Under the pieces are notes generated by a model that saw nothing but the letters and a program-made list of their open reading frames with translations, was not told where the DNA came from and made no database searches. A program made the position numbers and the translations under genes. A stretch of DNA of 64,000 nt from the NCBI GenBank assembly GCA_003482855.1, contig DMXO01000002.1, positions 210,635 through 274,634 on the forward strand, written 5' to 3'. Shown piece by piece: positions 4,201-32,845 of this stretch (positions are counted from its first letter, which is position 1; the number at the start of each line of letters is the position of its first letter). Source of the DNA: Candidatus Magasanikiibacteriota bacterium (lineage in GTDB: Bacteria > Patescibacteriota > Patescibacteriia > Magasanikbacterales > UBA922).

Positions 4201-4396
4201 CTATAACACAGAGTAATATCATTGGGGGTTCGGGGTGGCTACTGTTTGAGCGTCACTGCAAATAAGATGGTATATAATTCTTTGGTATAGCGAGTTTAGC
4301 CACCCCGACACTTTTTGTTACTTTTTGGTGACAAAAAGTAAGCAAGAGGGTGATCACATAAAATACCAATATCCTAATATCCAATATCTTAATATT

Positions 4397-6394: not shown

Positions 6395-7559
6395 AGATAG
6401 ATACCAATTGTGTATAATATGCCTCTCCATTATTTTGTTCTTGCACTTGTGTCTGAAGATCTCTGCCAACTTTCACAAGTTCACGATCATCTGCGTTGTA
6501 CCACATCTCAATAGTCTGAGAAAATTCGTCTACATTTGCGGGATCACATAGCATATGTTGTGGTAACATTTCTACCACTCCTCCAATTCGTGAAGCAACC
6601 ACTGGCTTGCCATACGCTTTTGCTTCGAGAATGCTCAGGGGATAATTTTCATACCACTGCGAAGGCACGACAACCACACGCGCATTACACATAATTGTAT
6701 CCAATTCTTTGCCTGATGTATATCCAACATATACTATATTGGGGATAGCCAAATCTTCTAGTTGTTTTTTCAAAGGGCCATCTCCCACGACCGTGTATGT
6801 GATATGTGGTGTCTTTTTTGCGATTTCGGGAAGCAAAAGTACACCTTTCTCTTGACCCAATCTGCCAATATATAGCACCCCACGTCCTGGTACTACGCCG
6901 ACTTCTTGTGGATTAAAATCAAATGGATTATGTATAACATGTATGTCGCGTTCAAACCCGCATGATACAAATTTTTCTTTCAAAAAATTACTCGGACTAA
7001 TATATGTATCTATCGCACGTGCCCACTTCTTCCATGCCCTCACACAAGCTTCACCTGTGGCAATAATACTTTCACCACCATGTTCCATACAATTATTGAG
7101 CAAACATCGATAATAATGTGACCCACAACAACTTTCATCGATTTTACCGTGATGAAACAAATTATAATTAGGACTTATCATCTTGTAATCATGCAATGTC
7201 ATAACGCATGGGATACCTTTTTCTTGTACAACGTCGAGCAAAGAAAAAGAAAGCTGATGATATATATTATGAATATGTATAACCTCAGGTCCAAAATCTT
7301 CAACCAATTTCCTAAACTTATTTTTTGCGTCTACATTATATATAGATTTCAATGCATCTCGCACCCTACCAAGGCCTCTCACCTGTGAGTAATCTATGAA
7401 GTCAATAAAATAATCATTCTCAATAGTATTTTCAGGATGTTTCATGCCAAAAATTTGAACCTCATGGCCATGTTCCTCAAGCAATTTCTTTGTAGCAAAA
7501 ACAACGCGCTCTGCCCCGCCACGGATGTACCAATATTTGTTGACGAGTAAAACCTTCAT
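6378..7559 (-). CDS. glycosyltransferase family 4 (GT4)
   Basis: MKVLLVNKYWYIRGGAERVVFATKKLLEEHGHEVQIFG; C-terminal GT4 sugar-donor binding region. Confidence 0.85.
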   Translation of the reverse strand: MKVLLVNKYWYIRGGAERVVFATKKLLEEHGHEVQIFGMKHPENTIENDYFIDFIDYSQVRGLGRVRDALKSIYNVDAKNKFRKLVEDFGPEVIHIHNIYHQLSFSLLDVVQEKGIPCVMTLHDYKMISPNYNLFHHGKIDESCCGSHYYRCLLNNCMEHGGESIIATGEACVRAWKKWARAIDTYISPSNFLKEKFVSCGFERDIHVIHNPFDFNPQEVGVVPGRGVLYIGRLGQEKGVLLLPEIAKKTPHITYTVVGDGPLKKQLEDLAIPNIVYVGYTSGKELDTIMCNARVVVVPSQWYENYPLSILEAKAYGKPVVASRIGGVVEMLPQHMLCDPANVDEFSQTIEMWYNADDRELVKVGRDLQTQVQEQNNGEAYYTQLVSIYENFV

Positions 7560-8633: not shown

Positions 8634-10127
8634 CTATTCCCCTTCCAATATATTCCCCTTATGCTTTTCTCTATACCAACAAAGTGCGACGATCCCTACA
8701 ATTGTCCAATAATAAAACATAAGTGTACGGAATTCAAAATACGGGCCAAAAAAACCAATACACATTACCCCTGCAGTCAGACCAACAAGCCCTTCGGCAA
8801 TGACATGTTCAAACACGTCGTGTACACTCTTGCGAACTACACAGGCCATGCGCATGATAGTAACAAATATACCAAACCACACGATGAGTCCTATCGTACC
8901 AAACTCTCCCCATATGCTCATCCAATTATTATCAATCTGTCCATATAGATTCTGAATGCCAAACGGCATATGCAGACGGTCATACATATCGGTATGCAGT
9001 AGTGCAGCTGCGACACCTCCGCCGTACTGTCCTGGTCCCACGCCAAATAATGGATACTGTGATACGACCAAACGAGGCGTATTGATAATAAAAAATATGC
9101 GCCCATATCCATCATAGCTATCACGCCACGCTTGAAAACTAAAAGCTTCAAACACACGCTCGCCAAATGATTGTGTCGGTTTCTCAGTCACTGATGTGAC
9201 ATTGGTCTTCACTAATGCAAACCCGACCAAATATATGAGTACGATACTTACAAAAATTCCAAGCCCGACTGCCACGCGTCTATCGCGTCGTAATGCAAGT
9301 CCTATGACTGCGATACCTACAAAAGCCGCAATCCAACTCGCGCGTGATGATGTGAGGAAGAGTACCACAAGCCCGGCAAACCCCGCCACCATATACCAAA
9401 TTTTACGAGTAGATTTATCTCGGGTAAAAATCCACGGGAAAAACATCACAAGGCCAAGCGCGACAAAACTCCCGAGTTGATCATATCTTCCCATGGTTGC
9501 AAATACACGGCTTCCTGTTGTCCAAAACTGTTCAAGTCCACCAAGAAGTGCTGCATTGCCTACCATGACCGTACGTGTAGAAAACAAATACTGATCCAGA
9601 TAACCACCTGACACATATTGAATAAGGCCAAATACAATTTCAACCACCATCATGGTACCACCAATCATTACCATGTTTTTCAATATTTCTTTGTCATATT
9701 GGATCCACAGTATGACAAAGAGCATCAATACAAAACGCAGTATCTGTCGCAATCCAAATGCCCATATCCATGGGCTATACCAATTCACAATGAGTGACAA
9801 ACACGCGACAAGGACAAAGCCAATAAACCATGCATTGAGTGGCTGTCGCGGTAATAATTTCTTCTTTCTACGGACAAACGATATCAGACTTCCACCAACC
9901 AAACCATACATGATAACTTCAGGGATATACTTCACATACGCGAAATAATCTATAGGTGTATACATGAGTACTAGACTTTCCAAAGGAAACCAAACAAGGA
10001 GACCATAAATGATCCACTCACTTTTCCTTATGGTAAATGTAAACAAAAAGCCCAAAACAAATATACAACATAACAAAAAAAGACCAATAAAATTGTTCGG
10101 TAAATAAGCTAACATCGTATCAATCAT
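8634..10127 (-). CDS. O-antigen ligase/polymerase (Wzy-like) polytopic membrane protein
   Basis: About 12 TM helices; TSSRASWIAAFVGIAVIGLAL segment resembles Wzy_C/O-antigen ligase signature region. Confidence 0.7.
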   Translation of the reverse strand: MIDTMLAYLPNNFIGLFLLCCIFVLGFLFTFTIRKSEWIIYGLLVWFPLESLVLMYTPIDYFAYVKYIPEVIMYGLVGGSLISFVRRKKKLLPRQPLNAWFIGFVLVACLSLIVNWYSPWIWAFGLRQILRFVLMLFVILWIQYDKEILKNMVMIGGTMMVVEIVFGLIQYVSGGYLDQYLFSTRTVMVGNAALLGGLEQFWTTGSRVFATMGRYDQLGSFVALGLVMFFPWIFTRDKSTRKIWYMVAGFAGLVVLFLTSSRASWIAAFVGIAVIGLALRRDRRVAVGLGIFVSIVLIYLVGFALVKTNVTSVTEKPTQSFGERVFEAFSFQAWRDSYDGYGRIFFIINTPRLVVSQYPLFGVGPGQYGGGVAAALLHTDMYDRLHMPFGIQNLYGQIDNNWMSIWGEFGTIGLIVWFGIFVTIMRMACVVRKSVHDVFEHVIAEGLVGLTAGVMCIGFFGPYFEFRTLMFYYWTIVGIVALCWYREKHKGNILEGE

Positions 10128-10231
10128 AGTACCTATATATTATCATATAGTAAGCATTTTTCAAAGATCAAATCTAGACCAGGCACGAGACACTTATTAA
10201 AACAAAAAACTCCATTTTATAGGAGCCATTT

Positions 10232-10345
10232 TAAATTCACCTAACTGTCCAATTCCCAATTCACCTAATAAAATTCAAATGTATAAATTGAAAATTATAT
10301 TATTGGACATTTTATTAGGTAATTGGAAATTAGGTGAATTAGAAA
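10232..10345. repeat. imperfect inverted repeat (aattcacctaa...ttaggtgaatt arms) at left edge of high-GC island
   Basis: aattcacctaactgtccaattcccaattcacctaataaaat ... attttattaggtaattggaaattaggtgaatt. Confidence 0.5.
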
Positions 10346-10581
10346 TTTTTATAGTAACCCTCAACACCTTCATAAACTTTTATAAAAGTGTAGTTGGGTT
10401 GGGATTCGGCGCGCAGTCGAATCCCTTCCCTCCTTTCCGCCTCCCGAGGGAGACGATGCGCCTGGACAGTGCCGCCAGGCTCGGCGTGGTTCACTCCCCG
10501 TGATCAGCTCTGCGCGAGCCGCGGATCATCATGAACGTGAATGTTTTCGACGCGGCGGCGGAGATAGAGGGTCGAGACGAC

Positions 10582-12573
10582 CTAGTTCTCCGGGGCGCAG
10601 TACACGCCCTCGTCGTTCCAACCGGTGCAGCCCACGGGGCCGGCGGGGTCGGCCACGCACCAGGGCGCCGTGTAGCAGCAGGAGGTGGCCGCCGTCGGGT
10701 CCGTGGTCGGCGTACCGCCGATCCACATCTCCTTCACGGGCGAGGCCATGCACGCCGCGAACAGCGGGTAGGTCGGCGCGGGCGTCGGCGTGTACACGCA
10801 GGTCATGTTGACGCAGGTGTCGATCGTGGCGCCGTTGCCGTCGTCGCAGTTCGCGTCGATCAGGCACTGGACGCAGGTCGCGTCGCCGCCACCGAGGTCC
10901 TGGCAGACGCCGGTCGTGCAGAGCGGCCCGCTGCTGCAGACGCCGGCCGTGCAGGTGTCGGCCGTGCAGGCATCGCCGTCGTCGCACTCGCCGTCGGCGG
11001 TGCAGTCCGGCACGCAGGCCGGGTCCGCCACGCAGTCGGGGTCGAGGCAGTCGGCGAGGCCGTCGGCGTCGTTGTCGAACGTGTCGGAGCAGGCGGCCTC
11101 GGTGTCGCAGTAGCCCGGGGCGCACATGGTGCAGCCCTGGACGTCGCGGCACTCCATGACGGCTCCGAGCGGACCGCACTCCTCCTCGTCAGCCCACAGG
11201 CCGACCTGCGTGCCCGGGATGAGCGTGCAGATGCGGTGCGTGAGGATGGCGGGGCCGGTGGTCTGCTCGACCTCGACGCAGAGCCCCTTGACCGTGACGC
11301 CGGCCTCGATCTCCTGCGCGGTGAACGTGCAGAAGTCGAGCGTGCAGATCGCGTCCGCGGTGCACACGCCGTTGCCGTCGGGCAGCTCGCAGAGCGAGCC
11401 CGTGGCCATCGGGTCGTGGCTGACGGCGCCGTTGGCCGAGTCGCACGCGTCGAGCGTGCAGGGGTTATCGTCGTCGGTGTCGACGTCGATGCCGACGCAG
11501 AGGCCGGCGACCGAGCAGGCGTCCTGCAGGGTGCAGGCGTCGCCGTCGTCGCAGATCAGGCTCGGCTGCGGAACGTGGGTGACGACACCCTCGATGTCGC
11601 ACGCGTCGAGCGTGCAGTCGTTGAGGTCGTCGATGTCCGACTTGGGCTCCGCCTCGCAGAGGCCGACGATGCACATGTCGTTCATGGTGCAGGCGTCGCC
11701 GTCGTCGCAGGCGAGCCCGTCCATGGCCTCGGTGTCGAAGTCGCAGCCCGTGACCGAGTCGCACGTGTCGACCGTGCAGTCGTTCTCGTCGTCGCAGACG
11801 AGCGACTCGGACTCGCACCAGCCCGTGACGAGGTTGCACGTGTTCACCGTGCAGGCGTCCGCGTCGGTGCAGTCCGTGTTCGACTCGCACTCGACGAGCT
11901 CGCGGCAGTAGCCGACCGCGGCCGGGGTGAGCGCCTCGGGGTTGATGGCGCACTCCTGCTCGTGCCCGTTGGGGCTCACGGGACAGGGGTCCACGATCGG
12001 GACGAGGTGGCAGTTGCCATCCACGTCCAGGTGGGTCACCACGGAGAAGCGGCCGACGTACACCTCGAGCTCGCCCGTGGCCGGGTTGTACCAGAGGTCG
12101 CCGTCCTCGGCCGTGTCGCACGACACGAGGTAGCGGGGGCCGATCGGGCCGTAGCAGTCGGAGCCCGTGATGCCCGGCTGGAACGTGAGCGCCGACCGCG
12201 TGGTCATGGTGCCGTCGCCGTTGTCGATGATGCCGAACTCCTCGTTGAGGTTGATCTGCGCCGTGTTGTAGCGCTCCACGATCGCCTCGTACGAGAGGGG
12301 CTCGACGTTGACGCTGGCGGGGTAGGCCGAGCAGCCCGTGTTGCGGTCGACCATCGGGTTCTCCGAGATCGGGCCGCAGTAGGTGTAGCCCTGGGGCGAC
12401 ACCGCGAACACGTGCTGCACGCTGACCTCGTCGGTCACGCTGGCGTACCACCAGGTCGAGTCGACCTGGAGCTGGTTGGTGGGCGCCTCCTTGTCGCCCA
12501 GGTTCGGGTTGTTGGCCTCGCAGCCGATGATGCCGATGACGCCGAGCACGAACAGAACCGTCGCCTTGCGCAT
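10582..12573 (-). CDS. lipoprotein with Cys/Asp-rich tandem repeats (Myxococcus-type cysteine-rich-repeat-like)
   Basis: Lipoprotein signal MRKATVLFVLGVIGIIGC. Repeated units CDDGDACTxxDxC and DxNDCTxDxCD. SD GGGAGG 7 nt upstream of ATG. Confidence 0.65.
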   Translation of the reverse strand: MRKATVLFVLGVIGIIGCEANNPNLGDKEAPTNQLQVDSTWWYASVTDEVSVQHVFAVSPQGYTYCGPISENPMVDRNTGCSAYPASVNVEPLSYEAIVERYNTAQINLNEEFGIIDNGDGTMTTRSALTFQPGITGSDCYGPIGPRYLVSCDTAEDGDLWYNPATGELEVYVGRFSVVTHLDVDGNCHLVPIVDPCPVSPNGHEQECAINPEALTPAAVGYCRELVECESNTDCTDADACTVNTCNLVTGWCESESLVCDDENDCTVDTCDSVTGCDFDTEAMDGLACDDGDACTMNDMCIVGLCEAEPKSDIDDLNDCTLDACDIEGVVTHVPQPSLICDDGDACTLQDACSVAGLCVGIDVDTDDDNPCTLDACDSANGAVSHDPMATGSLCELPDGNGVCTADAICTLDFCTFTAQEIEAGVTVKGLCVEVEQTTGPAILTHRICTLIPGTQVGLWADEEECGPLGAVMECRDVQGCTMCAPGYCDTEAACSDTFDNDADGLADCLDPDCVADPACVPDCTADGECDDGDACTADTCTAGVCSSGPLCTTGVCQDLGGGDATCVQCLIDANCDDGNGATIDTCVNMTCVYTPTPAPTYPLFAACMASPVKEMWIGGTPTTDPTAATSCCYTAPWCVADPAGPVGCTGWNDEGVYCAPEN

Positions 12574-12872
12574 GGGTTAACCTCCCGTGTTGCGCCGTTG
12601 CACGACCTCTCCCTCCCCAGACCTGGGGACAATGCCCTGGCTAAGGGGCGGGAGATAGAAAGCACTAGCCACTGACCTGAACAACTTTGTTATTCACTCA
12701 GTGGCTAGCACTTTCAAAAATACACTATATTGGATTGAAAGGTACTTCACCACCAAACTTATACAGTTTGATGATGACGATGCCTTTCCCCTCGTCCCCA
12801 TTCAGACACGCGCTTGGTAGCGACGCGTCCGAACAGCGGGGACGAGGGAAGGCGGAAGGACATGCGGCTCGA

Positions 12873-14147
12873 TCAGCCGCCGATGACGTCGGACCAGCCG
12901 AACCAGGTGGTGCCGCCGTTCTGCGAGCAGCCGTGGGCCGGATCGGCCTGGCACTCCGTGGCACCCACCGAGGTGGAGCCGCAGGTGACGACCTCGACCC
13001 ACATGCCGCTGGTGCAGCGGGCGAGCGAGGTGTTGCCCGTGGCCACGAAGTCGTAGCAGACCACGGCACCCTCGGTGCACTCGCTGGCCGTGACGGCCGG
13101 GGCGCAGTGCGCGAGGAGGCCCTGGTAGGGCTGGCACACGGTGCCCTCACCGCAGGGGTCGATCTCGACGCACGTGCCGTTGACCATGGTGGCCACGGTG
13201 CAGACGTTGCCGTCGGACTCGACGCACTGCGGGTCGCCCTCGATCACCTCGATGTGGTGGCAGCCGGAGGCCGCGTCGCACGTGTCGAAGGTGTCGTCGT
13301 TGGCGTCGTCGCAGGAGAGCGACGTGTTGGCGCAGTGGCCGTTGACCAGGCACTGGTCGAGCGTGCAGGCGTTGCTGTCGAAGCAGTCCTGGTTGCTCGT
13401 GCAGAGCTGGCGGCAGATGCCGACGTCGCACCACTGCGACTCGGGGTCACAGAGAGGCGCGAACTCGCACTCCTCGGTCTCCCAGTTGCACGTCGGGACG
13501 ACGCACGGGTCGGCCGACTCGCACGAGTTCAGGCACGCCGGCGGGAGCGACATGTGGCCGCAGTGGCCGGTGGCCTCGTCGCAGGAGTCCTGCGTGTTCG
13601 ACATGCCGTCGTCGCAGAACCCCACGTACACGGGGTTCCCGTTGACGTCGCAGAGGTCGGTCGTGCAGAGGCTGCCGTCGTTGGCGTCGCACACGCCGAC
13701 GTACTCCTCGACGCACACGCGCTCGCCGTTGTCGTCCGCCTTGCAGACGGACCGATAGAGCGGGTCGCTCGGGATGGGGCACGTGTAGGCGTAGCGCTTG
13801 ACGTTCCCCGTCATGTTGTCGCACACGTCGACCGTGCAGGGGTTGCCGTCATCGACGTTGGAGCACTCATGCTCCTTGATGACGCAGGCACCGAGCCAGC
13901 ACGCGAACGGCTCACCGCACTGCACCTCGTCGGTCGCGATGCACTCGCCGTTGGCGCACGTGCGGGTCTCGCAGGTGTCGGGATTCTCGGCGTAGCAGTC
14001 GGCCGACGTGAAGCACGTCAGCCCGACGTCGTCGGGGGTCGGCTCGCGCTGGACGGGCGGGGTCGTGGAGTTGTCGTCCTGGTTGAGGTACGGGTTGCCG
14101 TTGCAGGCCGCGAGGAACGCGAACACGAACAGGATGCTCTTCTTCAT
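12873..14147 (-). CDS. lipoprotein with Cys-rich repeats (paralogous architecture to 10582..12573)
   Basis: Lipobox MKKSILFVFAFLAAC. NPCTVDVCD / SLCTTDLCD / NACTLDQC repeats. SD GGAGAG upstream. Confidence 0.65.
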   Translation of the reverse strand: MKKSILFVFAFLAACNGNPYLNQDDNSTTPPVQREPTPDDVGLTCFTSADCYAENPDTCETRTCANGECIATDEVQCGEPFACWLGACVIKEHECSNVDDGNPCTVDVCDNMTGNVKRYAYTCPIPSDPLYRSVCKADDNGERVCVEEYVGVCDANDGSLCTTDLCDVNGNPVYVGFCDDGMSNTQDSCDEATGHCGHMSLPPACLNSCESADPCVVPTCNWETEECEFAPLCDPESQWCDVGICRQLCTSNQDCFDSNACTLDQCLVNGHCANTSLSCDDANDDTFDTCDAASGCHHIEVIEGDPQCVESDGNVCTVATMVNGTCVEIDPCGEGTVCQPYQGLLAHCAPAVTASECTEGAVVCYDFVATGNTSLARCTSGMWVEVVTCGSTSVGATECQADPAHGCSQNGGTTWFGWSDVIGG

Positions 14148-14224
14148 CTGGATCTCTCCGTCGGTTGGCCCGCACTCCGTGAGTCGGGCTCTGGTTCTTG
14201 TTCTCGATCTTCTTGCTTGAAGGA

Positions 14225-14833
14225 TCAGTACGCCCAGTACACTCCGGCGCCGGCTTCCTGGCGGTAGAGCGGGTCATCCCCGCCACCGAACCAGCCCGGC
14301 CCGAAAGTGTAGCGCGCCTCGAACCCGAAGTGTTCCCACGGTTGCCATCGCATGGCTACCGAGGCCACGAACGAGTTCACGACGTCGCTGTTCTGGGTCG
14401 TCGACATGCGGTCGTAGCCGATACCGGCGAGGCACTGGATCTTGTCCAGATGCGTCCGGTACGCGGCCTGGATCAGGCCCGTCATGAAGAGGGTGTCGAC
14501 GCCCTGCTCCATACCACCGGTCTCCACGCGCATGTAGCCGAAGTTCCCGAGGAACTCGAGACCGAAGTGCTGGGTCAGGGAGACCCAGCCCATGATCTGG
14601 AGCTTCGGGACTCCGGTCTGCACCTCGCCCGCGCCGCTGAAGTAACCCAGGAGGGCCACCTTGAAGCGGAACGAGTCGAGCTCGTGCGACATGGCGACCG
14701 ACTCGATCGCCGCGCGCGGGATGCGCGGGTCCGGGACCTGATACACGGTCGGCGCGGGCTGGGCCCGCACCGAGTTGGGGTTGAGGAACAGGACGAGGAA
14801 CAGGACGCTCAGGAACAGGTTCGCGCAACGCAT
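14225..14833 (-). CDS. outer-membrane beta-barrel protein (OmpA-like/OMP_b-brl), start at MRCANLFLSV...
   Basis: Signal peptide MRCANLFLSVLFLVLFLNPNSVRAQ, alternating hydrophobic beta-strand pattern, C-terminal aromatic (…GVYWAY), SD GGAGGGAG upstream. Confidence 0.55.
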   Translation of the reverse strand: MRCANLFLSVLFLVLFLNPNSVRAQPAPTVYQVPDPRIPRAAIESVAMSHELDSFRFKVALLGYFSGAGEVQTGVPKLQIMGWVSLTQHFGLEFLGNFGYMRVETGGMEQGVDTLFMTGLIQAAYRTHLDKIQCLAGIGYDRMSTTQNSDVVNSFVASVAMRWQPWEHFGFEARYTFGPGWFGGGDDPLYRQEAGAGVYWAY

Positions 14834-15059
14834 CGGACTCCCTCCGTCTGGGTGTGTTCGCAACTCGCGACTCTCGAAACGAAAGACTATAAATGTCCTT
14901 CCGCACTCCGACCCACAAGGCCGGAGATTGGAAATGTGTCTCCTAAGCACTCATACATATACAAAAAATACATTGTATATGCATACGTACTTAGGAAAAC
15001 ATTTGTAAAGAACAAAGGAATTCTTACCCTGTACCTTTATGGTACTAGGGTTATTCCCA

Positions 15060-15125
15060 TTTTCTGACAACATCTGATACAGATATTGTCACAAAGCGGG
15101 TGGGGTGGGGTATCGTCGTAAACAG
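15060..15125 (-). terminator. GC-rich hairpin (gcgggtggggtat/ataccccacccgc) downstream of 15201..16691 gene
   Basis: 13-bp stem, about 25-nt loop, followed on minus strand by TTTGTG; sits in AT-rich spacer inside island. Confidence 0.4.
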
Positions 15126-15200
15126 TCTCAAACTCATACCCCACCCGCAGATGTCCGTGGATCCTCCCGGTTCCTCGGACGTCGTGTCAAAATGCCCTGG

Positions 15201-16691
15201 TCACGGGCAGGTGGCGAGCACCCAGTTGCGGGCGTCGGCGCAGCGGCGGGGGTCGCCGTTGACCTGGCACACCATCTGGGTGTACTCGCTCTTGCCGCAC
15301 ACGATCGTGGCGGCGCCGGTCACGTCGCCCGCGAAGCACTCGACCGCCTTCGAGTCCTTCTCGATGTAGGTGCCCGAGCAGGTGCCCGAAGCGGTCGGGG
15401 CGGCGGCGCCACCAGTGGGGGCGGTCGGGGCGACGGGGGCGGTCTCGTGCACGATGCGGGTCGTGTGGCTGGTGCGGGTCACCGTGTTGTGCACGTTGAT
15501 CTCGCCCTCGGCCGTCACGTCGCCCGCCTTGACCTCACCGGCGCGCACGATGCCCGCCTTGACCTCACCGGCCTCGACCGTCTCGATCGTGACCGGGAAG
15601 GTGCGGGGCGCGGCCTCGGCGGCGAGGCGGGCGGCCTCGGCGGCGGCGGCGACCTTCTGGGAGAAAGCCGCGTCGTCACGGGCCGACTTCACGTCGTCGT
15701 TGCTCGGGTTGAGGGCCCAGAGCAGGAAGAACGTGAGGAGCGCCGCGCTCCCGATGATGCCGGCCATGATCCACCACGGCCGGCTCGCCTTCTCCGCGCG
15801 CTTGGCGTCGTCGTCGCGGACGATCGACGGGTTCAGAGCGAGGAGCTCCTTCACCGTCAGGTCGCCGACGATGGCGTTGCCGCCCGAGCGCCCACCGTTG
15901 GTGATGTTGTCGCGGAGGGCGACGAACACGGTGCGCTCCTTGGGCTCGGCGGAGACGACGGGGGCGACGACGGTCTGCGAGGGGCAGAGCTCCTTCATGA
16001 GCCGGAGGCTCGTGAGGAGGTCGTCCTTGCCCGCGGTGCGCGCGCGCTCGAGGTCCTCGGCGCTGATGGCCGGGACCGTCGTCGTGGTGTGCGCGTCGTC
16101 GTGGCCGTGGCCGTGGTGGCCGCCGTCGTTGGTCTCGCGCTGGGCGAGGACGTCGGCGACGCGCCGCTCGATCCCCTTGCGGGTGAGCGTGGTCATCGGC
16201 TTGCCGGTGCCACCGATCAGCACGAGCTGCTCGGGGTCCGACTCGTCGATGCCGAGCACGTGACCGGTGTTGATCGCGTGCTGCTCGGCGCGGGGGTTGA
16301 GCTCCGCCTGCTGGACCTGCGGACCGCCGAAGACCACGTTGGTCGTGCGGTTGCTGGCCAGGAAGGCGAGGAGGTCGCTGAGGCCGGGCTCGCTGGTGCG
16401 GGCCGAGGCCGGGCGGCGGGGCTCGTCGGTGGACGGCTGGCGGCGGGGCTCGGGCTCGCGGCGGGTGTCGGTGCGGGCCGAGGCCGGGCGGCGGGTGTCG
16501 GCGTTGCTGCCGCGGGTCCGCTCGTCCTTGCGCTTCTTGTTGCACCGCTCCTCGGTGTGCCCGGGCTTGCCGCAGTACGCGCAGGTGACCTGCTCGCGCT
16601 CGGTGGCGGGGGCCGCGTCGTCGGTGTGGGCGGCGGCGGTGTCGGTGGTGATCTCGGGGGCCTGGGTGCTGGGGTCGGTCGCGGTCGTCAT
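15201..16691 (-). CDS. membrane protein with N-terminal CCHC zinc knuckle, Arg/Pro-rich linker, single TM and repeat-containing Cys-bearing C-terminal domain
   Basis: CAYCGKPGHTEERC = CX2CX4HX4C. RRPASART duplicated. TM WWIMAGIIGSAALLTFFLLWAL. AGEVKAG x3 tandem. SD GGGAGAGAG upstream. Confidence 0.55.
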   Translation of the reverse strand: MTTATDPSTQAPEITTDTAAAHTDDAAPATEREQVTCAYCGKPGHTEERCNKKRKDERTRGSNADTRRPASARTDTRREPEPRRQPSTDEPRRPASARTSEPGLSDLLAFLASNRTTNVVFGGPQVQQAELNPRAEQHAINTGHVLGIDESDPEQLVLIGGTGKPMTTLTRKGIERRVADVLAQRETNDGGHHGHGHDDAHTTTTVPAISAEDLERARTAGKDDLLTSLRLMKELCPSQTVVAPVVSAEPKERTVFVALRDNITNGGRSGGNAIVGDLTVKELLALNPSIVRDDDAKRAEKASRPWWIMAGIIGSAALLTFFLLWALNPSNDDVKSARDDAAFSQKVAAAAEAARLAAEAAPRTFPVTIETVEAGEVKAGIVRAGEVKAGDVTAEGEINVHNTVTRTSHTTRIVHETAPVAPTAPTGGAAAPTASGTCSGTYIEKDSKAVECFAGDVTGAATIVCGKSEYTQMVCQVNGDPRRCADARNWVLATCP

Positions 16692-17063
16692 GGTACTCTC
16701 TCCCTAGTCCTGCCCCTGGTGGGGGCGCAGTGAAAGCGCGCCCCACGTTGGGGCTTTGGTAACCTACCGTAGGCCTCGCGACACACGTCGCGTGACCATA
16801 TCCGGATACTGTATATGATCATAGAGATCATAGCCTGTACCCGGATATGGTATTTTATTTTTTTGTAGCTATTTTGACACGAATTCTTGTAAAGAGCGAC
16901 ACTCACCCTATTTTAGGATGAACAGAAGATTATATCATATATTGTGTAGTTTGTCAAGAGATAAAGGCTCTATATTTTCCCTCGGGAGAACAGATATTTT
17001 TTGCTTAATATAGAGAAAAAAATGAAAAACAAAAAAGGCTTTATTGAGCCAATTTTGCTATCA

Positions 17064-17145
17064 CTCGAACACTTGAACACCTAAGCACTGGAGCACCAGG
17101 TCACTGAAGCATTTAAGCACTAGGACATTTAATTACTTAAACACC
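17064..17145. repeat. array of degenerate TAAGCAC/GAGCACC/TGAACACC ~9-bp units (intergenic motif family, copy A)
   Basis: cgaacacttgaacacctaagcactggagcaccaggtcactgaagcatttaagcactaggaca... Confidence 0.55.
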
Positions 17146-17202
17146 TATCATAATATGCTTCGGACTACAAAAACCATACAAATTATTTTTTTCTTCTGCA
17201 CT

Positions 17203-17265
17203 GCAACTCACCCCCGTCCCCTCTCTTAGTAAGAGAGGGGTGCCCCGAGTACTCGGGGTGGGGTG
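17203..17265. repeat. nested palindromic GC hairpins (aactcacccc…ggggtgagtt enclosing cccctctctt/aagagagggg and ccccgagtactcgggg)
   Basis: Direct reading; perfect 16-bp palindrome ccccgagtactcgggg inside larger inverted repeat. Confidence 0.5.
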
Positions 17266-17284
17266 AGTTACATAAAAAAAATAT

Positions 17285-17322
17285 AACAAAAAGCTCCCCG
17301 ATGATGAGAGCTTTTTTGTACT
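17285..17322 (-). terminator. rho-independent terminator of giant ORF
   Basis: Minus strand: aaaagctctcatcatcggggagctttttgtt immediately after stop. Confidence 0.5.
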
Positions 17323-17329
17323 AACCTGT

Positions 17330-20300
17330 TTATCTATTTCCACCACGTGGTCCACCACCCCGAGGACCGCCGCCTCCACCACCTTTTTTACGCCCGCCTT
17401 GTCCTTGTTGTCCTCTGGCATTATCAGGTCTATTGTCAGGACGCTGACCACGATCCTGTTGTCCAGATCTATTGTCACTACCTTGTTGACCCTGACGTCT
17501 ATCATTCCCTTTCTTTTCTCTTTGTCCCCTATCTCGATTACTTTCATCTGAGCCACCACTCCTATCATTGTTTCTATCTCTACCGCCATTGCGTCGATCT
17601 CTGCCATTTGGTCGTCCACTGTCTCTATTGTTTGATCTGTTTGCAGACCCTTCGCCAGCACCAAGACCGAGATCATCACGAACCTGTTCATCGAGCAACG
17701 AAGCTACATCTATAGACATACGCGTCTGCATATCACGCGCAATATCTCGAGCTTGTGTACGAATAGCATCTGTTGCTTTGCGTAATGATCTATCACCACT
17801 CTCTTGTCCTAATCTTCGCACCAGTTCAAGTGCGGCAAGTTGTTTAGTAGCTTGTTCAAAATCTACCTTGTTTGTCTCTCCACCACGCGCTACATCTGGC
17901 ATCTCAGTACTACCAAACAATAACTCACGCGCCTGATCTCCGTTCAAAGACATCTTACTTACATCAAAAGATAGAGACCCTTTATCTTTTTTCACCCCAA
18001 TAGATCCATACGAACCAAGATTGAAATACGTAGTATCTGGATTTGCTTCAGATGTATCTGAGCCGGTGCCTTCAGCACTACCTTGTGCATGTGCCGTGTC
18101 ATCATCCATTGCTTCTACATCATCTGTCTGCTCTGCTTCATCTTGTGTTTGTGCAGGTGGTTGTGTCTCTACTACAGGAGCAGGAGTAGTACCTGCATCC
18201 ACTCTCGACGTAGAAGTTGAAGTAGTATCTCCCTCTCCAGCGGTAGGAACTTGTTCTCCTTGTCTTGCGCCCTTACGTTCGTACGCAGGACGAGGAGCAT
18301 CCTTCATACCACGAGACACATCTTCGAGTACAGGTCGTTCTCGTGTGGCAAAATATAGAGCTCCTGCTGCGAGCGCACCTCCACCAGCCACAGCATTGAG
18401 CATGGCAAGTCTACCATATGAAACATCAAACGATCGTCCATCTTCCATACCAAGTCTGACACCCTTGCCATCTGGTGTAGGCTCTGCATCTGTAGCACCA
18501 TCTACATGTATATTTGCTTCTTCGCCAGTATTGGTATTACGTACGGGTATATCTGCGCCACTACCAGTCACACGTGGATCTGCCACTGGCTCTACACGCG
18601 GTTCACGCGCGCGAGCTGCTGCCAATTCTTCAAGACGTTGCTGCGCATCTTCAGCCTGTGCTATCTGTGCCAAAGCAAGAGATTTACGATCAAGATCTCC
18701 GGTAGTAGGAGCATACTCATCAGCATCTCCTGTAGTACGCATACCACTGGCAATAAATCTATCTGGACTGCCACCGGTGCTTGTCTCGTTCATACCCATA
18801 TAGACAATTGGTCTACCTGGTTCTGCACGAAGTGGTGTCCTGCCACCTGGTTGATTATCAAACAATTTTACATTATCTGCTAAATAATCATCTCTGTTGG
18901 CATCATGCTGAAGTGCAGAACCGAGGCGTCGGATGAGATCACCACTACGACCACCTGCTGGCTGGTCAATAACCTGCGCTTTGTATTCTGCAAGGAAATC
19001 TGCAAGCGCCTTGTCTGTATCCTGCGGTATACCATCGGGAAATAATTTACCCAAAGATACACGATTGAATCCTTGACTCTGCAAAAATCTCAGTGCCTCG
19101 TCTGTATGCCCTGTCTTCATCATTTCTCCGACCATAGTGAGATCACGTTCGCGTTCAAAATGTAAAATCCATTGTGGATCACGAAACTTTGCCTCGGGGA
19201 ATAATGTATCTTCGCTACCTGTACCATGATCTGTGGCAGACTCAAGTACTGATCGCATAGCATCGGCATTGCCAAGACTCGGGTACGCGGTAACCCACGC
19301 ATCCATTTCTTTTGCTGCCGCAGGTGATAAATGAAATTCTTTTATGATATCGAGACGATCTATATCCCAACGAGCTGACTCGGGCACTGGCGGTACTTCT
19401 ATTGTCTCTGCTCGCGGAGTGGGCTCTCCTGATGGTGGTGCATCTACATCTCTGCCTCCATGTGCACCCACATCTGGTGATGTGTCGTGTGCATGATCTG
19501 CTACTTGAGCGCCTGTACCCGCTGCTGTTCCTGTTTCTTCTGGGATTCTTATGCCTAATTTTTCAAATGCCCATGCTCCAATGTCTTTGCTAAAATAGCC
19601 AAGACCAGCACCAATTACGCCACCGACAACCATACCTTTGAGAGCTCCTGCATGGCGTTTGATGAAGCCACCCTTATCTTTTAATTTATCAATAGTCTGT
19701 TGGCGTTCTGATTTGAGCAAGCTCACATCTGTATCAAGCTCTGCTAAAAGTGCTTCTGCTCCTGCATGTCTCAGGCGTTTGTCGTATGTCTCATATTCAA
19801 TACTGCGCAATACGTTACGTGCGCGCACTCGCAATAGTTCGCTATTGTTCAATAGACCAAGAGACATGGCAACACGAATATCTTTTGCGAGTTTCTGAAG
19901 ACCGGTATCACTTAGGCTTTCAGTCTTCTTGCTATCTATGCCAAGCGTAGACAATGCAAGCTCTGCTTCATCTATACGTCTCTCTACCTCTGTACGCATC
20001 TCTTCTTCACGTGCTCTAATATCTTTCATATTGCCCAGATGCGTTCCCAAATATGCACCCGCAAGTCCAAGCACTGCAGCGCGTACTTCTGGTGCAAAAC
20101 TTGATGCGACACCTATGGCTCCACCAGCAATAGCGCCCATTACTTTTTTGGCTAATTCATTTTGATCAAGTACCTCGCCATCGGCTTTGAATAATGATTG
20201 TACATCGCCACGCTTCAAAGCCATAGCTTTTTGTAATACGCGCATCATGCCAGGATTCTCACGAATGATATCTGCGACTGCGTCTACTGTCTGGCCACTA

Positions 20301-23300
20301 TACAACTCTGAAACCAAATGATCGAGACGAGCGTCCTGAGCTTCTTCGCGGGATATCTCTCCACGCGCAGCTCGAGTACGTGCATCGAGCGCTATTTCAC
20401 GACGCCCAGCTTGCAAAAGCAATATTGCCTGCGCGCGTATAGTATCATCATCCACTACTTCTGCACCAAGTCGAGCCTCATCGCGAGTAACTGCAGAAGA
20501 TGCATCTGTGCGACTCACACGATATGAAGCAGTGATGAGACCATCACTCATAAATACCGCAAGACGATCTATAAGTGTCTTGTCTCCACCTTGTGGAGTT
20601 CCATCAGCCCCTTTTGCCAGACCAAATCTTTGCATAAGTCTCTGACGAAATTCTGGCGTATTTCTAAATGTTTGTAATATTTCATCTTCTTTTTGTTTAA
20701 TTTTTTCTTCCACGTCTTGAGTACGATTGAGTGTGCGTTCACGTCCCGCTTTGGTGCTTCGCTCTGCTGCATACCAACCACCAATAGCTCCAGCTATGCC
20801 ACGCACTACCATCGCAGGAGCTTTGGCAACCGTGCCTGCAAGAGACGCGAGTCCGACTACAACAGCAGCAGGACCTACCGTGACTAAAGCATTTTTGGCT
20901 TTCTCCCACACTTTGGTCATGCCACCATGATAAAACTTTTTCATGTCTTGAAGTACATTGGTTTCTTCGCTCGCGACAAACAAACGGATACCATACATAG
21001 TCTCACGGTATCCTTGTTGCTTTTCCCAAAAACCAAGAAAATCTTCTGCATCTGTATACCCAGCACGACGAGCCTCTTCGCGGAGACGGCGTTCATCCAC
21101 ACCTTCTTGTCTAAATATATGTGTAATGTATTCTTCTACATCGCCTGCTGCAGTAGGATCTGTCATGAGATGCAATAATTTCGTGTATCTCTCACGGCCA
21201 ATTATTTCAATCAACACATGTGGGCGTATGTCTACTATGCCATGCTCAAACTCTTCGACAGTCCCCTCTGGCATATTGTTCAATCTGCGATGCAAATCTT
21301 CGGCTGCATTGTATTTGTCTGCAGCACTACTCCATACCGTACCGTCAGGAGTAACTTCAAACGTTTCTCCGTGGGATATATGCGCACGCATCACCTGTTG
21401 TCTATCTATGACTGAGTCAGTATAGAGCGGTTTGAGACCGCGCGCCTGCAGTTGATCCGGGCTTTCGATGCAAAAACGTTTGATACCAAACAGATGCTCA
21501 TCTGGCGATATAATGACGCACATACCTTGGTTACGCGCTTCTGCACATAGGGCGGATAACCTTCCAACGACTGTGGTGTCCAATGGTGCATCTGCGCTAC
21601 CAAAATTGCCCACGTCAAACCCAAACACGGAAGATAATACAGATGCACCTACACCTGGAGGCATACCATATTCACGCGCTAGGCGTGCCATCGTAGCTTC
21701 TGGCGTTTCAACAGCTGTCTCTGCCGAAGCACTATCTGACACTGCAGTACTTTCTCCTGTTGTCTCTTCAATATCAGGAAGTTCTATTCTCGGATGTGGT
21801 TTGCCTACTTCAGAAGATTTGGAAACCAAACCTCTCAAACGCTGGCCTATAGATTTTTTGCGTACAGCAAAATTGTATGGATCATCTGATACGAATTCAT
21901 ATCCTTTCGCAGGATAATACGTATTGTTACCATCTTCATCACGTGCCGCGTATACTCTTCCTGTATCCAATGCATATGAAAGATCAACAAAAGGAATATC
22001 TTCTTCTTCAGCACGTTTTATTGAATCTATTTGTTCTGAATTCAACAAATTTTGCATCATATCTTCAAACCACCAATCAGGATCTTCTGCTCCATCCAAT
22101 GATGATACATGGATCCTCGAAACATCCGGATGTTGTTCACGAGTATGTCTAAACTGCGCCAATAATCTGCGCATTTCTTCACGGCGCTCTGATGGTATAT
22201 ATGGCCTTCCATGCCAATCACGCCCTTCGTCATCCATGAGACTCACACACGCAAACATAGCATCAGCAAGACGTCCGAGTTCTTGCGCAGGATTCTCCTG
22301 CTCATGTGCTTCTACGTCAGCACCCTGCTCTGCTGGTGATTGTTCACTAGCCTGCACCACATCACGCACAGCAATTCTTCTATCGGACAAGACTACTACC
22401 TCTTTGCCTTGTGACCTCATTATATCTATATACTGCTGTACAACTTCGGCAGAAAACTCTGCAGGGATATCATTGATTTCAAATCCCAAAGTGCGCAATT
22501 CTTCTGGAGACATACTTTCCAAAGGGATATCTACATCGTAAACTCTTGAAGAATCCGCGGATGCAGAATCTGCAGAAGCGTCAGCATGACTTGCTTCATC
22601 CTCACGAGCTGTATCACCCTCTCCCTCACCATGCAGAGCTGGAAAATTATCACCGGATAATGCTTCATCACCTGTTCGTCGCGCAGGAAGATTATCCCTG
22701 CCATCAGGGATAGCTGGCAGATGATCTGACGGCAAAACATCCTCTGGAGCTTCGGCACTAGACTGTGTAGCTTTCACAGCAGAGGGACCAAATACTGATT
22801 CGGGATTACCACCAAGCACACGAACTAATTCGCGACTCGAGTCTTTGATAGTAGGATCAATATATAATGCAGTACCCCTCATTTCATGTTGTCCATTTGG
22901 TGATATATGTATTTCAGTAATATATCTATCATGTTCACCAATAGAACGATGTATAATACCTAGTAACCTCTGCGCATACTCAGGGCTCAACATGCCTTTT
23001 GGTTTGGTAAATTCACCCCAAGACTCCCTCAACCTGCCCCAATTTTTTGCAAATGTGTTTATTCTAAAACGAGGATCTATTTTCTGAAGTTCTTTTTCTG
23101 CAGGACCCAAAATATCCAACAATGCTTTTTCTACACCTACTGGTTCTTCGGGATTGGTAGATCGACCTGCGTTCGGGTCTGCCTGTTCTCCACCCGGAAC
23201 TGAAGCCTTTTCTTTTCTGCGTCTTTTTATTTTTTCTGATTCACCTTTTTTGGTTGCATCTGATGACTCAGTAATTTTTACTACTTCTATAGATAAATTA

Positions 23301-28664: not shown

Positions 28665-28765
28665 TAAGAACGCCTTAGCACTACAGCACCTAAGCACCTG
28701 CCTGCGCAGGCAGGCTCAAGCACTTTTTCTAAGATAAACTTTTTTGGTGCAACGTGCTTAAGTGT
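28665..28765. repeat. TAAGCAC-family motif array (copy B) with embedded perfect 18-bp palindrome cctgcctgcgcaggcagg (28697-28714)
   Basis: ctaagaacgccttagcactacagcacctaagcacctgcctgcgcaggcaggctcaagcac ... gtgcttaagtg, in divergent promoter region between minus-strand array and smpB. Confidence 0.55.
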
Positions 28766-32654: not shown

Positions 32655-32845
32655 AATATCTAAGTCTTCTAAGCTCTCTAAGCTTTCTCAGTTCTTCTGA
32701 GATTAGCATAGTGCTTAGTATAAAAAAACTGTGGTTGTAAACCACAGACACTCTGTAACCCTCGACCTTTTTGTCTAGCTAAAATAATTTAGAAAACCTA
32801 GATAGCTTAGACGACTTAGAGGTTACCTCGGCAGGAAATTGAGTC
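32655..32845 (-). promoter_or_regulatory. putative rplJ 5' leader (L10-leader-like) containing 9-mer tandem repeats and GNRA-type hairpin
   Basis: tctaagtcttctaagctctctaagctttctcag tandem units; perfect hairpin ctgtggtt-gtaa-accacag; position upstream of rplJ. Confidence 0.35.

Follow-up and report, generated by a model that had tools for sequence, protein, structure and literature searches.

A GC-rich gene island in the genome of a Magasanikbacteria-like bacterium of the CPR, a group of very small groundwater bacteria, is interrupted by AT-rich stretches. In our judgement these are somewhat probably conserved spacers with a cis-regulatory role, belonging to an operon of four envelope-protein genes that has been inherited vertically. 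Their AT-rich cores are neither generic host signals nor captured host sequence, and they are unlikely to be a product of amelioration. The window, that is the whole stretch of 64,000 nucleotides analyzed, carries the island at approximately 10400-16800, with four genes on the minus strand:

15201-16691, minus strand: CDS of 496 aa, CCHC knuckle and one transmembrane helix, GC3 0.97
14225-14833, minus strand: CDS of 202 aa, signal peptide and predicted 8-stranded OmpX/Ail/OmpA-like beta-barrel, aromatic C-terminal residue
12873-14147, minus strand: CDS of 424 aa, lipoprotein signal (LAAC) and Dicty_CTDC cysteine-rich repeats, GC3 0.97
10582-12573, minus strand: CDS of 663 aa, lipoprotein signal (IIGC) and Dicty_CTDC repeats, GC3 0.98

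The coding sequences of the island are 66-73% GC, which bears out the value of about 70% given in an earlier note on this DNA, and their GC3 is 0.91-0.98 compared with 0.28-0.40 in host genes; overall, the island is about 68% GC and the host about 39%. Averaged over 100-nt segments, GC content drops to 39-42% at 12650-12799 and reaches 31-41% at 14900-15099, so the dips are present at both spacers which the earlier note had named. Its description of the spacers as AT-rich and host-like holds for two cores but not for the third spacer in the range, which is GC-rich:

12664-12783, no strand: AT core of spacer 1, 38% GC
14939-15090, no strand: AT core of spacer 3, 33% GC
14148-14224, minus strand: short junction of the 202-aa and 424-aa genes, 57% GC, without an AT core

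This junction is equally tight in relatives (25 nt in L019 and 47 nt in L021). With 33-38% GC the cores equal host intergenic DNA (35%) in composition, and each of them has a GC-rich 3' hairpin on one side and, on the other, a leader of about 90-110 nt whose GC content exceeds that of the core. The extreme GC content extends to the coding parts and the hairpins flanking them, while the spacer parts in between have host intergenic composition. Beyond dinucleotide content, the cores resemble host intergenic DNA in their oligomers only marginally (z 1.4-1.7, p about 0.06); true host intergenic segments compared with one another score the same as the cores. Being marginal only, k-mer host-likeness was rejected as evidence.

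The earlier note also suggested that the spacers carry host motifs and that the genes are regulated by host-type signals, and neither proposal is supported. TAAGCAC is indeed located at 14944-14950, but its total in the window is at chance level (8 copies vs 7.06 expected) and the other motifs named are not enriched either. GGGGTGGGGT has one other site only in the 64 kb, at 17255, directly adjoining the island; TAAGCAC, AAGCACTAG and GGGGTGGGGT were all rejected as host motifs, being at chance level or marginal. The same applies to 9-10-mers common to spacers and host arrays, because a 360-nt spacer compared with 128 kb should give about 44 such matches by chance. As for regulation, the cores are without a sigma-70-like promoter and their content is private to islands. 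What they carry is an island-specific 11-nt box, GCTCTTTACAA, with the general form (G/T)(C/T)TCTTTACAA, which is then followed by a long AT-rich hairpin:

16887-16897, minus strand: box copy 1, GCTCTTTACAA, 33 nt after the -10 hexamer
15003-15013, minus strand: box copy 2, GTTCTTTACAA, in the AT core of spacer 3
12734-12742, minus strand: degenerate box, CCTTTCAAT, upstream of the 663-aa gene; the L019 orthologue has CCTTTACAAT
15050-15073, minus strand: conserved block ATGTTGTCAGAAAAnGGGAATAA, common to L021 and L019

The box in the form CTTTACAA has only two copies in the 64 kb, both in AT-rich regions of the island and both on the gene strand. In 1.4 Mb, 15 of the 42 copies of TCTTTACAA lie within AT-rich positions that have GC-rich DNA downstream (1.28% of positions), where 0.54 are expected; this is an approximately 28-fold enrichment upstream of GC-rich genes (P = 3e-18), compared with 3-fold for TTGACA and 1.6-fold for TATAAT as controls at the same positions. 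The exact box was found in only 9/28 spacers between island genes across the clade, which indicates that it is a lineage-specific variant and not a universal feature.

Long hairpins accompany the box and begin 4-35 nt after it, while GC-rich structures follow the 3' ends of the genes:

16795-16851, minus strand: AT-rich leader hairpin 1, 26-nt arms, 85% complementary, -34.3 kcal/mol, z -8.1
14941-14996, minus strand: AT-rich leader hairpin 2, 24-nt arms, -33.9 kcal/mol, z -9.4
12658-12715, minus strand: leader hairpin 3, 18-nt arms (12658-12675/12698-12715), -38.2 kcal/mol, z -9.6
15096-15148, minus strand: GC-rich 3' hairpin after the 496-aa gene, GCGGGTGGGGT...ACCCCACCCGC, then UUUGUG, z -3.6
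12769-12853, minus strand: GC-rich 3' structure after the 424-aa gene, without a U-tract, -53.8 kcal/mol, z -8.3
10396-10430, minus strand: GC-rich 3' hairpin at the left island edge, z -4.2

Several of these contain inverted repeats which had been noticed before. The repeat described as having perfect 17-bp arms is present as leader hairpin 3, but its arms are 18 nt long and complementary at 16/18 positions as DNA; the two mismatches become G·U pairs in the sense RNA, and only there is the stem a perfect one, of 18 bp. The 7-bp repeat likewise exists but is merely the tip of the 24-nt-arm repeat of leader hairpin 2 (14941-14964/14973-14996, 83% complementary), which includes TAAGCAC as well. 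The ggggtgg-type hairpin corresponds to the repeat GGGTGGGGTAT/ATACCCCACCC at 15103-15146, in the 3' hairpin of the 496-aa gene, which is conserved in L021 and L019, and the second repeat reported close to spacer 1 is CCCTCGTCCCC/GGGGACGAGGG at 12789-12848, in the 3' structure of the 424-aa gene. This structure (12769-12853, minus strand) also holds a conserved 31-mer, GGGGACGAGGGGAAAGGCATCGTCATCATCA, 30/31 identical in L019. The AT-rich leader hairpins of the window have z of -8 to -10, and across loci z is at most -3.6 in 18/20 instances, with unrelated sequences and the pairing kept. In 12/18 hairpins, including all three in the window, the sense RNA folds more stably than the antisense RNA (Wilcoxon p = 0.02), which is a modest bias; for leader hairpin 2 the difference is 14.9 kcal/mol. 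At the gathering threshold the island matches no Rfam 15 family; in a relaxed search (E up to 1) the AT-rich hairpins overlap only sub-threshold microRNA-type matches, i.e. generic hairpins.

The arrangement is not confined to one genome. The gene order 496-202-424-663-Wzy recurs in another organism (L017/L019) at 29-48% protein identity and partly in L021, and matching gene order together with AT dips was observed in L017/L019, L021 and L104. GC-rich islands lie beside a Wzy/GT4/GHL15 cluster in 29/84 related loci, and across the clade 26 of the 28 spacers between island genes fall to 40% GC or lower. The spacers can be aligned between organisms and are at least as conserved as the adjoining coding sequences; orthologous islands of other CPR genomes retain the box, the place of the hairpin and several additional blocks. 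Island gene content varies among distant relatives, and in one locus (L088) a spacer-plus-gene unit is duplicated.

On the minus strand, the predicted sole strong promoter and sole canonical terminators bracket the island:

16929-16957, minus strand: sigma-70-type promoter TTGACA-17-(TG)TATAAT upstream of the first island gene, 12/12 matches, TG before the second hexamer
10208-10227, minus strand: first canonical intrinsic terminator downstream of the island genes, stem and T-run

This promoter is the only minus-strand site with at least 10/12 matches in 10000-17400, and no sigma-70 site with at least 9/12 matches (hexamers 16-18 nt apart) was found in 12574-12872 or 14834-15200. Stable stems follow the 496-aa, 424-aa and 663-aa genes but none of them passes the T-run criterion of a rho-independent terminator; among the loci compared, canonical terminators are present in 3/22 internal island spacers versus 8/18 host spacers. 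A single transcript with each AT core acting at the RNA level is the mechanism we prefer, with about an even chance of being right, and its elements are predicted ones. Transcription would start at the perfect promoter (16957-16929), cross all four genes and end at the terminator (10227-10208). Processing or binding of the polycistronic RNA would take place at the single-stranded AU-rich linker with the box. The GC-rich hairpin upstream of this linker could shield the 3' end of the preceding cistron, and the AT-rich hairpin downstream could form the 5' end of the following cistron, with a protective or regulatory function. The cores would then remain AT-rich because they must stay unstructured or meltable, and also because whatever holds the rest of the island at high GC evidently leaves them untouched.

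Alternatively, every AT core could hold a promoter of its own, which would give three transcription units (496; 202 with 424; 663). We consider this rather unlikely, although it is the most probable of the alternatives. The box would then be a -10-like element (TACAAn, extended GCTCTT) for a housekeeping or alternative sigma factor, or the site of a dedicated transcription factor, and the hairpin a stem-loop at the 5' terminus of an mRNA with one or two cistrons, a position with which its distance from the box is compatible. The box does resemble a -10 hexamer (TACAAT/TACAAA), with 4-5/6 positions of TATAAT and an A-rich tract upstream, and in L098 it lies just 20 nt past a canonical terminator; these two features favour an internal promoter over an RNA element. 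The 202/424 junction has no AT core here or in orthologues, as would be expected of a promoterless junction, and a gene for an ECF-type sigma factor is located about 10 kb away on the same contig. On the other hand, the last position of the hexamer, the most conserved one in sigma-70 promoters, varies, and no -35 or -10 partner stands at a fixed distance from the box. The window, L093 and L047 already have a strong canonical sigma-70 promoter 33-46 nt upstream of the box. No such promoter is known to precede an internal gene (those of the window and L093 precede first island genes), and internal island spacers are mostly without a strong sigma-70 promoter. The absence of U-tracts from the 3' hairpins of the 424-aa and 663-aa genes and the rarity of internal terminators also speak against separate units.

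Recent transfer from a GC-rich, Myxococcota-like donor, with its intergenic DNA exchanged for host-type sequence, or ameliorated towards it, and provided with host promoters, is very improbable and in fact already contradicted, while ancient transfer into an ancestor of the clade is possible. Atypical composition and codon usage are properties of a genomic island, the closest non-CPR relatives of the 663-aa protein are found in contigs of uniform 70% and 60% GC, a lipoprotein and an outer-membrane-type barrel are typical of double-membrane bacteria, and the cores have host composition. However, the island is syntenic in L017/L019, and gene order, spacer sequence and box are conserved in CPR genomes in which the proteins of the flanks have only 33-49% identity. 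Island and flank also diverge together: in L058/L072 they are collinear at 87% identity, with 13.2% divergence in the island vs 11.7% in the flank. The long residence of these genes, which the earlier note had suggested, is thereby supported. An exhaustive search of 1.84 billion representative proteins returned only four relatives of the 202-aa family, all in AT-flanked mosaics. GC3 of 0.98 with no sign of decay stands beside fully AT-rich cores; "reverted" spacers are unlikely because the adjacent synonymous sites remain 98% GC. Hallmarks of integration are absent: the nearest tRNA is at 33.7 kb, no integrase or transposase was found among the 37 proteins of the window, and no direct repeats were found at the island boundaries (only coding repeats inside genes). 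A plasmid DNA search with the island gave no match. As stated above, host motifs are not enriched.

It is equally improbable that the genes were inserted separately, as cassettes or mobile elements, and that the hairpins are attC-like sites or remnants of MITEs. Imperfect inverted repeats flank each gene, their structure being conserved and their sequence not, gene content differs among distant relatives, and the duplicated unit in L088 would suit such an origin. Nevertheless, the hairpin ends (TCCTAAG..CTTAGGA, GAAAGTG..GTGCTTTC and ACCATAT..ATATGGT) are without RYYYAAC/GTTRRRY core sites, the order of all four genes is kept in L019, the hairpins favour sense RNA, and neither an integrase or transposase in the window nor direct repeats at the boundaries were found. 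The integron/MITE reading was rejected on the absence of integrase and core sites and on the conserved gene order. Finally, an assembly chimera, in which a GC-rich organism was joined to a CPR contig, has a negligible probability: many assemblies break at 10345-10535, 11041 or 16448, but five independent ones cross the junctions at 100% identity, both junctions being spanned, as expected from the earlier note's argument against a chimera, and the mosaic recurs in unrelated data sets, one of which is a complete chromosome of 1.23 Mb (L049).

The products of the proposed operon point to the cell envelope. Both Dicty_CTDC (PF00526) assignments exceed the Pfam gathering threshold of 27 bits (55.9 bits for the 663-aa and 41.6 bits for the 424-aa protein), while an NCBIfam search with the four island proteins gave no match. 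In the 496-aa protein the C-terminal domain is conserved in L017/L019, with 42% identity over 248 aa. The structure model of the 202-aa protein, built from three sequences and of moderate confidence (pLDDT 70), consists of a helix (2-16) and eight strands; its Foldseek matches have E = 7e-8 to 3e-5 and a target-normalised TM-score of at most 0.66 at 9-14% sequence identity, among them Ail (E = 7e-8) and OmpX (TM-score 0.65). Signal peptide, strands, fold match and the aromatic C-terminus (YWAY) are, in this predicted model, those of an eight-stranded outer-membrane beta-barrel. A word-indexed protein search with the 202-aa protein returned only the protein itself, metagenome locus scans with alignments of its family returned no loci, and one weak match (P0124) was rejected as an unrelated crystallin-domain protein. 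No genes for outer-membrane or BAM machinery were found in the 64 kb plus flanks, and the host group is thought to lack an outer membrane. The protein is in accordance with the eight-stranded barrels Ail, OmpX, the OmpA transmembrane domain, OmpW and NspA in its signal peptide, eight predicted strands and C-terminal aromatic residue, and differs from them in its low identity and in its host. Similarly, the 663-aa and 424-aa proteins share 36-43% identity with Dicty_CTDC lipoproteins of Myxococcota from contigs of 60-70% GC, but here the genome is that of an AT-rich CPR bacterium, the regulatory spacers are private, and leucine codons are 75% CTC and 25% CTG, whereas typical GC-rich bacteria favour CTG. 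We did not find Dicty_CTDC proteins in CPR, nor GC-rich islands in Magasanikbacteria or CPR, described in the literature.

Several known systems share some of these features. Intercistronic processing modules are known from E. coli pap, from malEFG with its REP sequences and from Rhodobacter puf, and 5' stem-loops that stabilise mRNA from, for example, ompA. The spacers resemble them in the succession of a 3' hairpin without a U-tract, an AU-rich linker and a hairpin opening the next cistron; they differ in the conserved 11-nt box and in an operon 30 GC points off its genome, and any cleavage in them is a prediction. The antigenic-variation locus vls of Borrelia, which encodes surface lipoproteins, is GC-rich and GC-skewed within an AT-rich genome, and there too a raised GC content is conserved at the level of the locus and not of its sequence. 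However, neither silent cassettes nor an architecture for gene conversion was observed here, and the contrast is larger (GC3 0.98 vs 0.32) and delimited gene by gene with AT-rich spacers. Horizontally acquired genomic islands are similar in their sharp GC contrast, surface-protein cargo and, in this case, repeat-protein homologues in GC-rich Myxococcota-like genomes; besides lacking a tRNA target, integrase and flanking repeats and being syntenic and co-diverging with its flanks across the clade, the present island has a composition that is undecayed despite saturated divergence.

Atypical GC content is routinely read as recent foreign DNA that is bound to ameliorate. A 30-point contrast which outlasts synonymous saturation, with cores only bases away at host composition, indicates that composition is maintained gene by gene. 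We tentatively propose, at slightly less than an even chance, that a CPR clade of Magasanikbacteria and relatives has a vertically inherited envelope cluster by Wzy/GT4/GHL15 whose genes are actively held at GC3 0.7-0.98, in genomes of 0.2-0.6, by a gene-delimited force from which only the box-and-hairpin spacers escape. This force could be selection on mRNA, such as resistance to an AU-directed RNase or control of translation rate, or a targeted GC-biased process. We know of no long-persisting gene-specific compositional contrast this large described in a bacterium, and the island offers a natural test system for the determinants of GC content, i.e. selection, biased conversion and mutation. 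If true, the proposal would also place outer-membrane-type proteins in a lineage thought to have none, and envelope proteins typical of double membranes with a private control module would provide leads on how these episymbionts build or target a cell surface. Public gene calls on long contigs annotate the wrong strand at the island, and because of such calls and the frequent assembly breakpoint, islands of this kind are probably under-reported in CPR genomes.

The window is bacterial chromosome of about 39% GC, with a tmRNA, a tRNA-Glu and an L10 leader, and encodes DNA polymerase III alpha, PheRS, ClpC, IF3 and NAD synthesis genes. It is identical to Rifle groundwater metagenome contigs, among them NCBI GCA_001783195.1 and a JGI contig of 540 kb. 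Its GHL15 protein has its relatives mostly in genomes of Candidatus Magasanikbacteria and Uhrbacteria (CPR/Patescibacteria). Host genes have GC3 of 0.28-0.40, while in the island (10400-16800) GC jumps to 60-86% in 100-nt windows and the four minus-strand genes have GC3 of 0.91-0.98.

Features of the island (window coordinates)
15201-16691, minus strand, 496-aa gene
14225-14833, minus strand, 202-aa gene
12873-14147, minus strand, 424-aa gene
10582-12573, minus strand, 663-aa gene
10531-12675, plus strand, publicly called antisense ORF, 714 aa, no Pfam match
12687-14267, plus strand, publicly called antisense ORF, 498 aa, no Pfam match
15105-16733, plus strand, publicly called antisense ORF, 542/513 aa, no Pfam match
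12734-12742, degenerate copy of the box, a short conserved motif of the island's AT regions

A/T-ending codons are nearly missing from the island genes (AAG 100%, GAG 98%, GAC 96%, CTC 75% of Leu), and amino-acid usage is likewise GC-shifted. The long plus-strand ORFs, with GC1 of 0.88-0.96, are the mirror image of the true minus-strand frames. Public gene calls on two long contigs, JGI Ga0103682_10000001 and Logan SRR2177986, consist of these antisense ORFs and miss the true genes, which are correctly called on short contigs only.

On a fine scale each of these spacers consists of a GC-rich hairpin immediately 3' of the stop codon of the preceding gene, then an AT core (12664-12783, 38% GC; 14939-15090, 33% GC) and a leader of about 90-110 nt, richer in GC than the core and ending in a good ribosome-binding site. 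Since host intergenic DNA is 35% GC, the cores resemble it in composition. The AT-rich island spacers described in the earlier note are real as GC dips in 100-nt windows with two AT cores, but the junction of the 202- and 424-aa genes, at 57% GC, lacks such a core. Its "perfect 17-bp" inverted repeat exists as an 18-nt repeat with two mismatches, and its "7-bp" repeat is the end of one with 24-nt arms. The proposed host motifs did not hold: TAAGCAC occurs in 8 copies against 7.06 expected, GGGGTGGGGT has a single other site, adjoining the island, and the test for enrichment of host-type oligomers was marginal. The suggestion that the genes are resident is borne out by the age of the island in the clade, but not that of host-type signals, the cores being private to the island and the named motifs not enriched. 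Six of the eight TAAGCAC copies are intergenic, five of them in regions of the roughly 8-bp-periodic nnnAGCAC-type arrays found in host intergenic DNA (17060-17140, 28670-28760 and 32660-32720; for example TCGAACAC TTGAACAC CTAAGCAC TGGAGCAC CAGGTCAC TGAAGCAT TTAAGCAC).

Orthologous spacers are alignable between organisms, with conservation at least equal to that of the adjacent CDSs. They share the 3' hairpins, ATGTTGTCAGAAAAnGGGAATAA, TGCGGAAGGATAA, a 31-mer identical at 30/31 positions and the box, (G/T)(C/T)TCTTTACAA. CTTTACAA has only two copies in the 64-kb window (15003-15010 and 16887-16894), each within an AT region of the island and on the same strand as the genes. Across 1.4 Mb of related loci, 15 of 42 copies of TCTTTACAA lie at AT-rich positions with GC-rich DNA downstream, which make up 1.28% of positions (P = 3e-18); control hexamers were enriched just 1.6-3-fold. 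Each box is followed, 4-45 nt further on, by a long hairpin whose pairing is kept although the sequences are unrelated between loci (z <= -3.6 in 18/20 instances, -8.1 to -9.6 for the three in the window). Owing to G·U pairs, the sense RNA of these hairpins is stabler than the antisense RNA in 3/3 window cases and 12/18 overall (p = 0.02), and no Rfam family matches the hairpins. A fixed-distance partner element for the box was looked for and none was found. One related locus (L088) carries a tandem duplication of spacer, with box and hairpin, and the start of the next GC-rich gene (4383-5480 and 5723-6634).

The only strong minus-strand promoter is a 12/12 sigma-70 site at 16957-16929, and the only two canonical minus-strand terminators are at 17316-17288, ending the upstream giant gene, and at 10227-10208, after the last island gene. 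The hairpins 3' of the 424- and 663-aa genes have no qualifying U-tract, nor has that 3' of the 496-aa gene (UUUGUG only), and canonical terminators are present in 3/22 internal island spacers vs 8/18 host spacers. A strong canonical promoter lies 33-46 nt before the box at the first island genes of the window and of L093, and at L047; the box at these places would be transcribed. The bracketing signals, the rarity of internal terminators and the predicted transcription of the box together favour one operon with the AT cores as RNA-level modules. The AU-rich linker with the box would then be a site of RNA cutting or binding, flanked by a protective 3' hairpin and, across the linker, a 5' hairpin. 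The main rival, the box as a -10-like internal promoter, draws on its TACAAT-like core and on locus L098, where the box lies 20 nt after a terminator; it has to be weighed against the boxes that themselves lie downstream of a promoter. Under the operon and internal-promoter readings alike the cores serve a function, are conserved and belong to the island alone, and their AT-richness is a functional requirement plus host background composition. Captured host DNA is rejected as their source, as they are conserved across organisms and island-private. The earlier note's argument against a contig chimera is confirmed, both junctions being spanned by independent assemblies at 100% identity. In many independent assemblies contigs end at the island's edges or inside it (10345-10535, 11041, 16448; NCBI contig MFQX01000013.1 at 11041), which probably leaves GC-rich islands under-represented in the genome bins of CPR.

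In a second organism (L017/L019, host about 32% GC) genes for 350, 202, 438 and 794 aa stand in the same order, followed by Wzy-GT4-GHL15; the proteins are 29-48% identical to the window's, and AT dips occupy the same two positions, with none at the 202/438 junction. The pattern recurs in the fragments L021 and L104. An Azambacteria contig has GC-rich Dicty_CTDC (PF00526) genes with AT-rich spacers between them beside the same Wzy cluster, its flank proteins just 24-35% identical to the window's. Among 84 clade loci retrieved via the neighbouring GHL15 gene, 29 have islands, with GC3 of 0.72-0.96 (host 0.22-0.62) uncorrelated with host GC3 (r = 0.13), and 26 of 28 spacers separating island genes dip to GC <=40%. 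The close pair L058/L072 aligns in a single 17.8-kb stretch through island and flank, the island part diverging by 13.2% and the host part by 11.7%; C-G exchanges are 23% of island differences vs 5% of host differences. We infer that the island is old in the clade and that its GC content is maintained, not decaying. GC3 might be kept at 0.7-0.98 by selection for mRNA that resists RNases or is translated slowly, or by a GC-biased process restricted to the locus; literature searches turned up no account of such GC-rich islands in Magasanikbacteria or CPR.

Each of the 663- and 424-aa proteins combines a lipoprotein signal peptide with Dicty_CTDC repeats. The 202-aa protein is modelled as a signal peptide followed by an 8-stranded barrel with an aromatic C-terminal residue, and the predicted barrel resembles Ail, OmpX, the OmpA transmembrane domain and OmpW; the host's group (CPR) is not known to have an outer membrane. 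A search of 1.84 billion representative proteins yielded no more than four relatives of the 202-aa family, each in an AT-flanked mosaic, and the best non-CPR matches of the 663-aa protein lie on contigs of uniformly 70% and 60% GC. An ancient origin from a GC-rich double-membrane lineage is plausible. Signal-peptide proteins with a terminal F or W are encoded in many related islands. The 496-aa protein carries a retrovirus-type CCHC knuckle (CAYCGKPGHTEERC) at residues ~37-50 in a low-complexity N-terminal region, then a single transmembrane helix and a C-terminal domain that is conserved. The gene immediately upstream of the island (17330-24931) encodes a protein of 2533 aa that has a PP2C phosphatase domain, and an archaeal-type PEP carboxylase (PEPcase_2) is encoded at 47772-49226. 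An ECF-type sigma factor gene (Sigma70_r2/r4_2, 185 aa), with a gene for 432 aa next after it, lies some 10 kb from the island on the window's own contig, roughly 350 bp outside the window start (L005 20470-21494). This factor is a candidate for control of the envelope-gene cluster.
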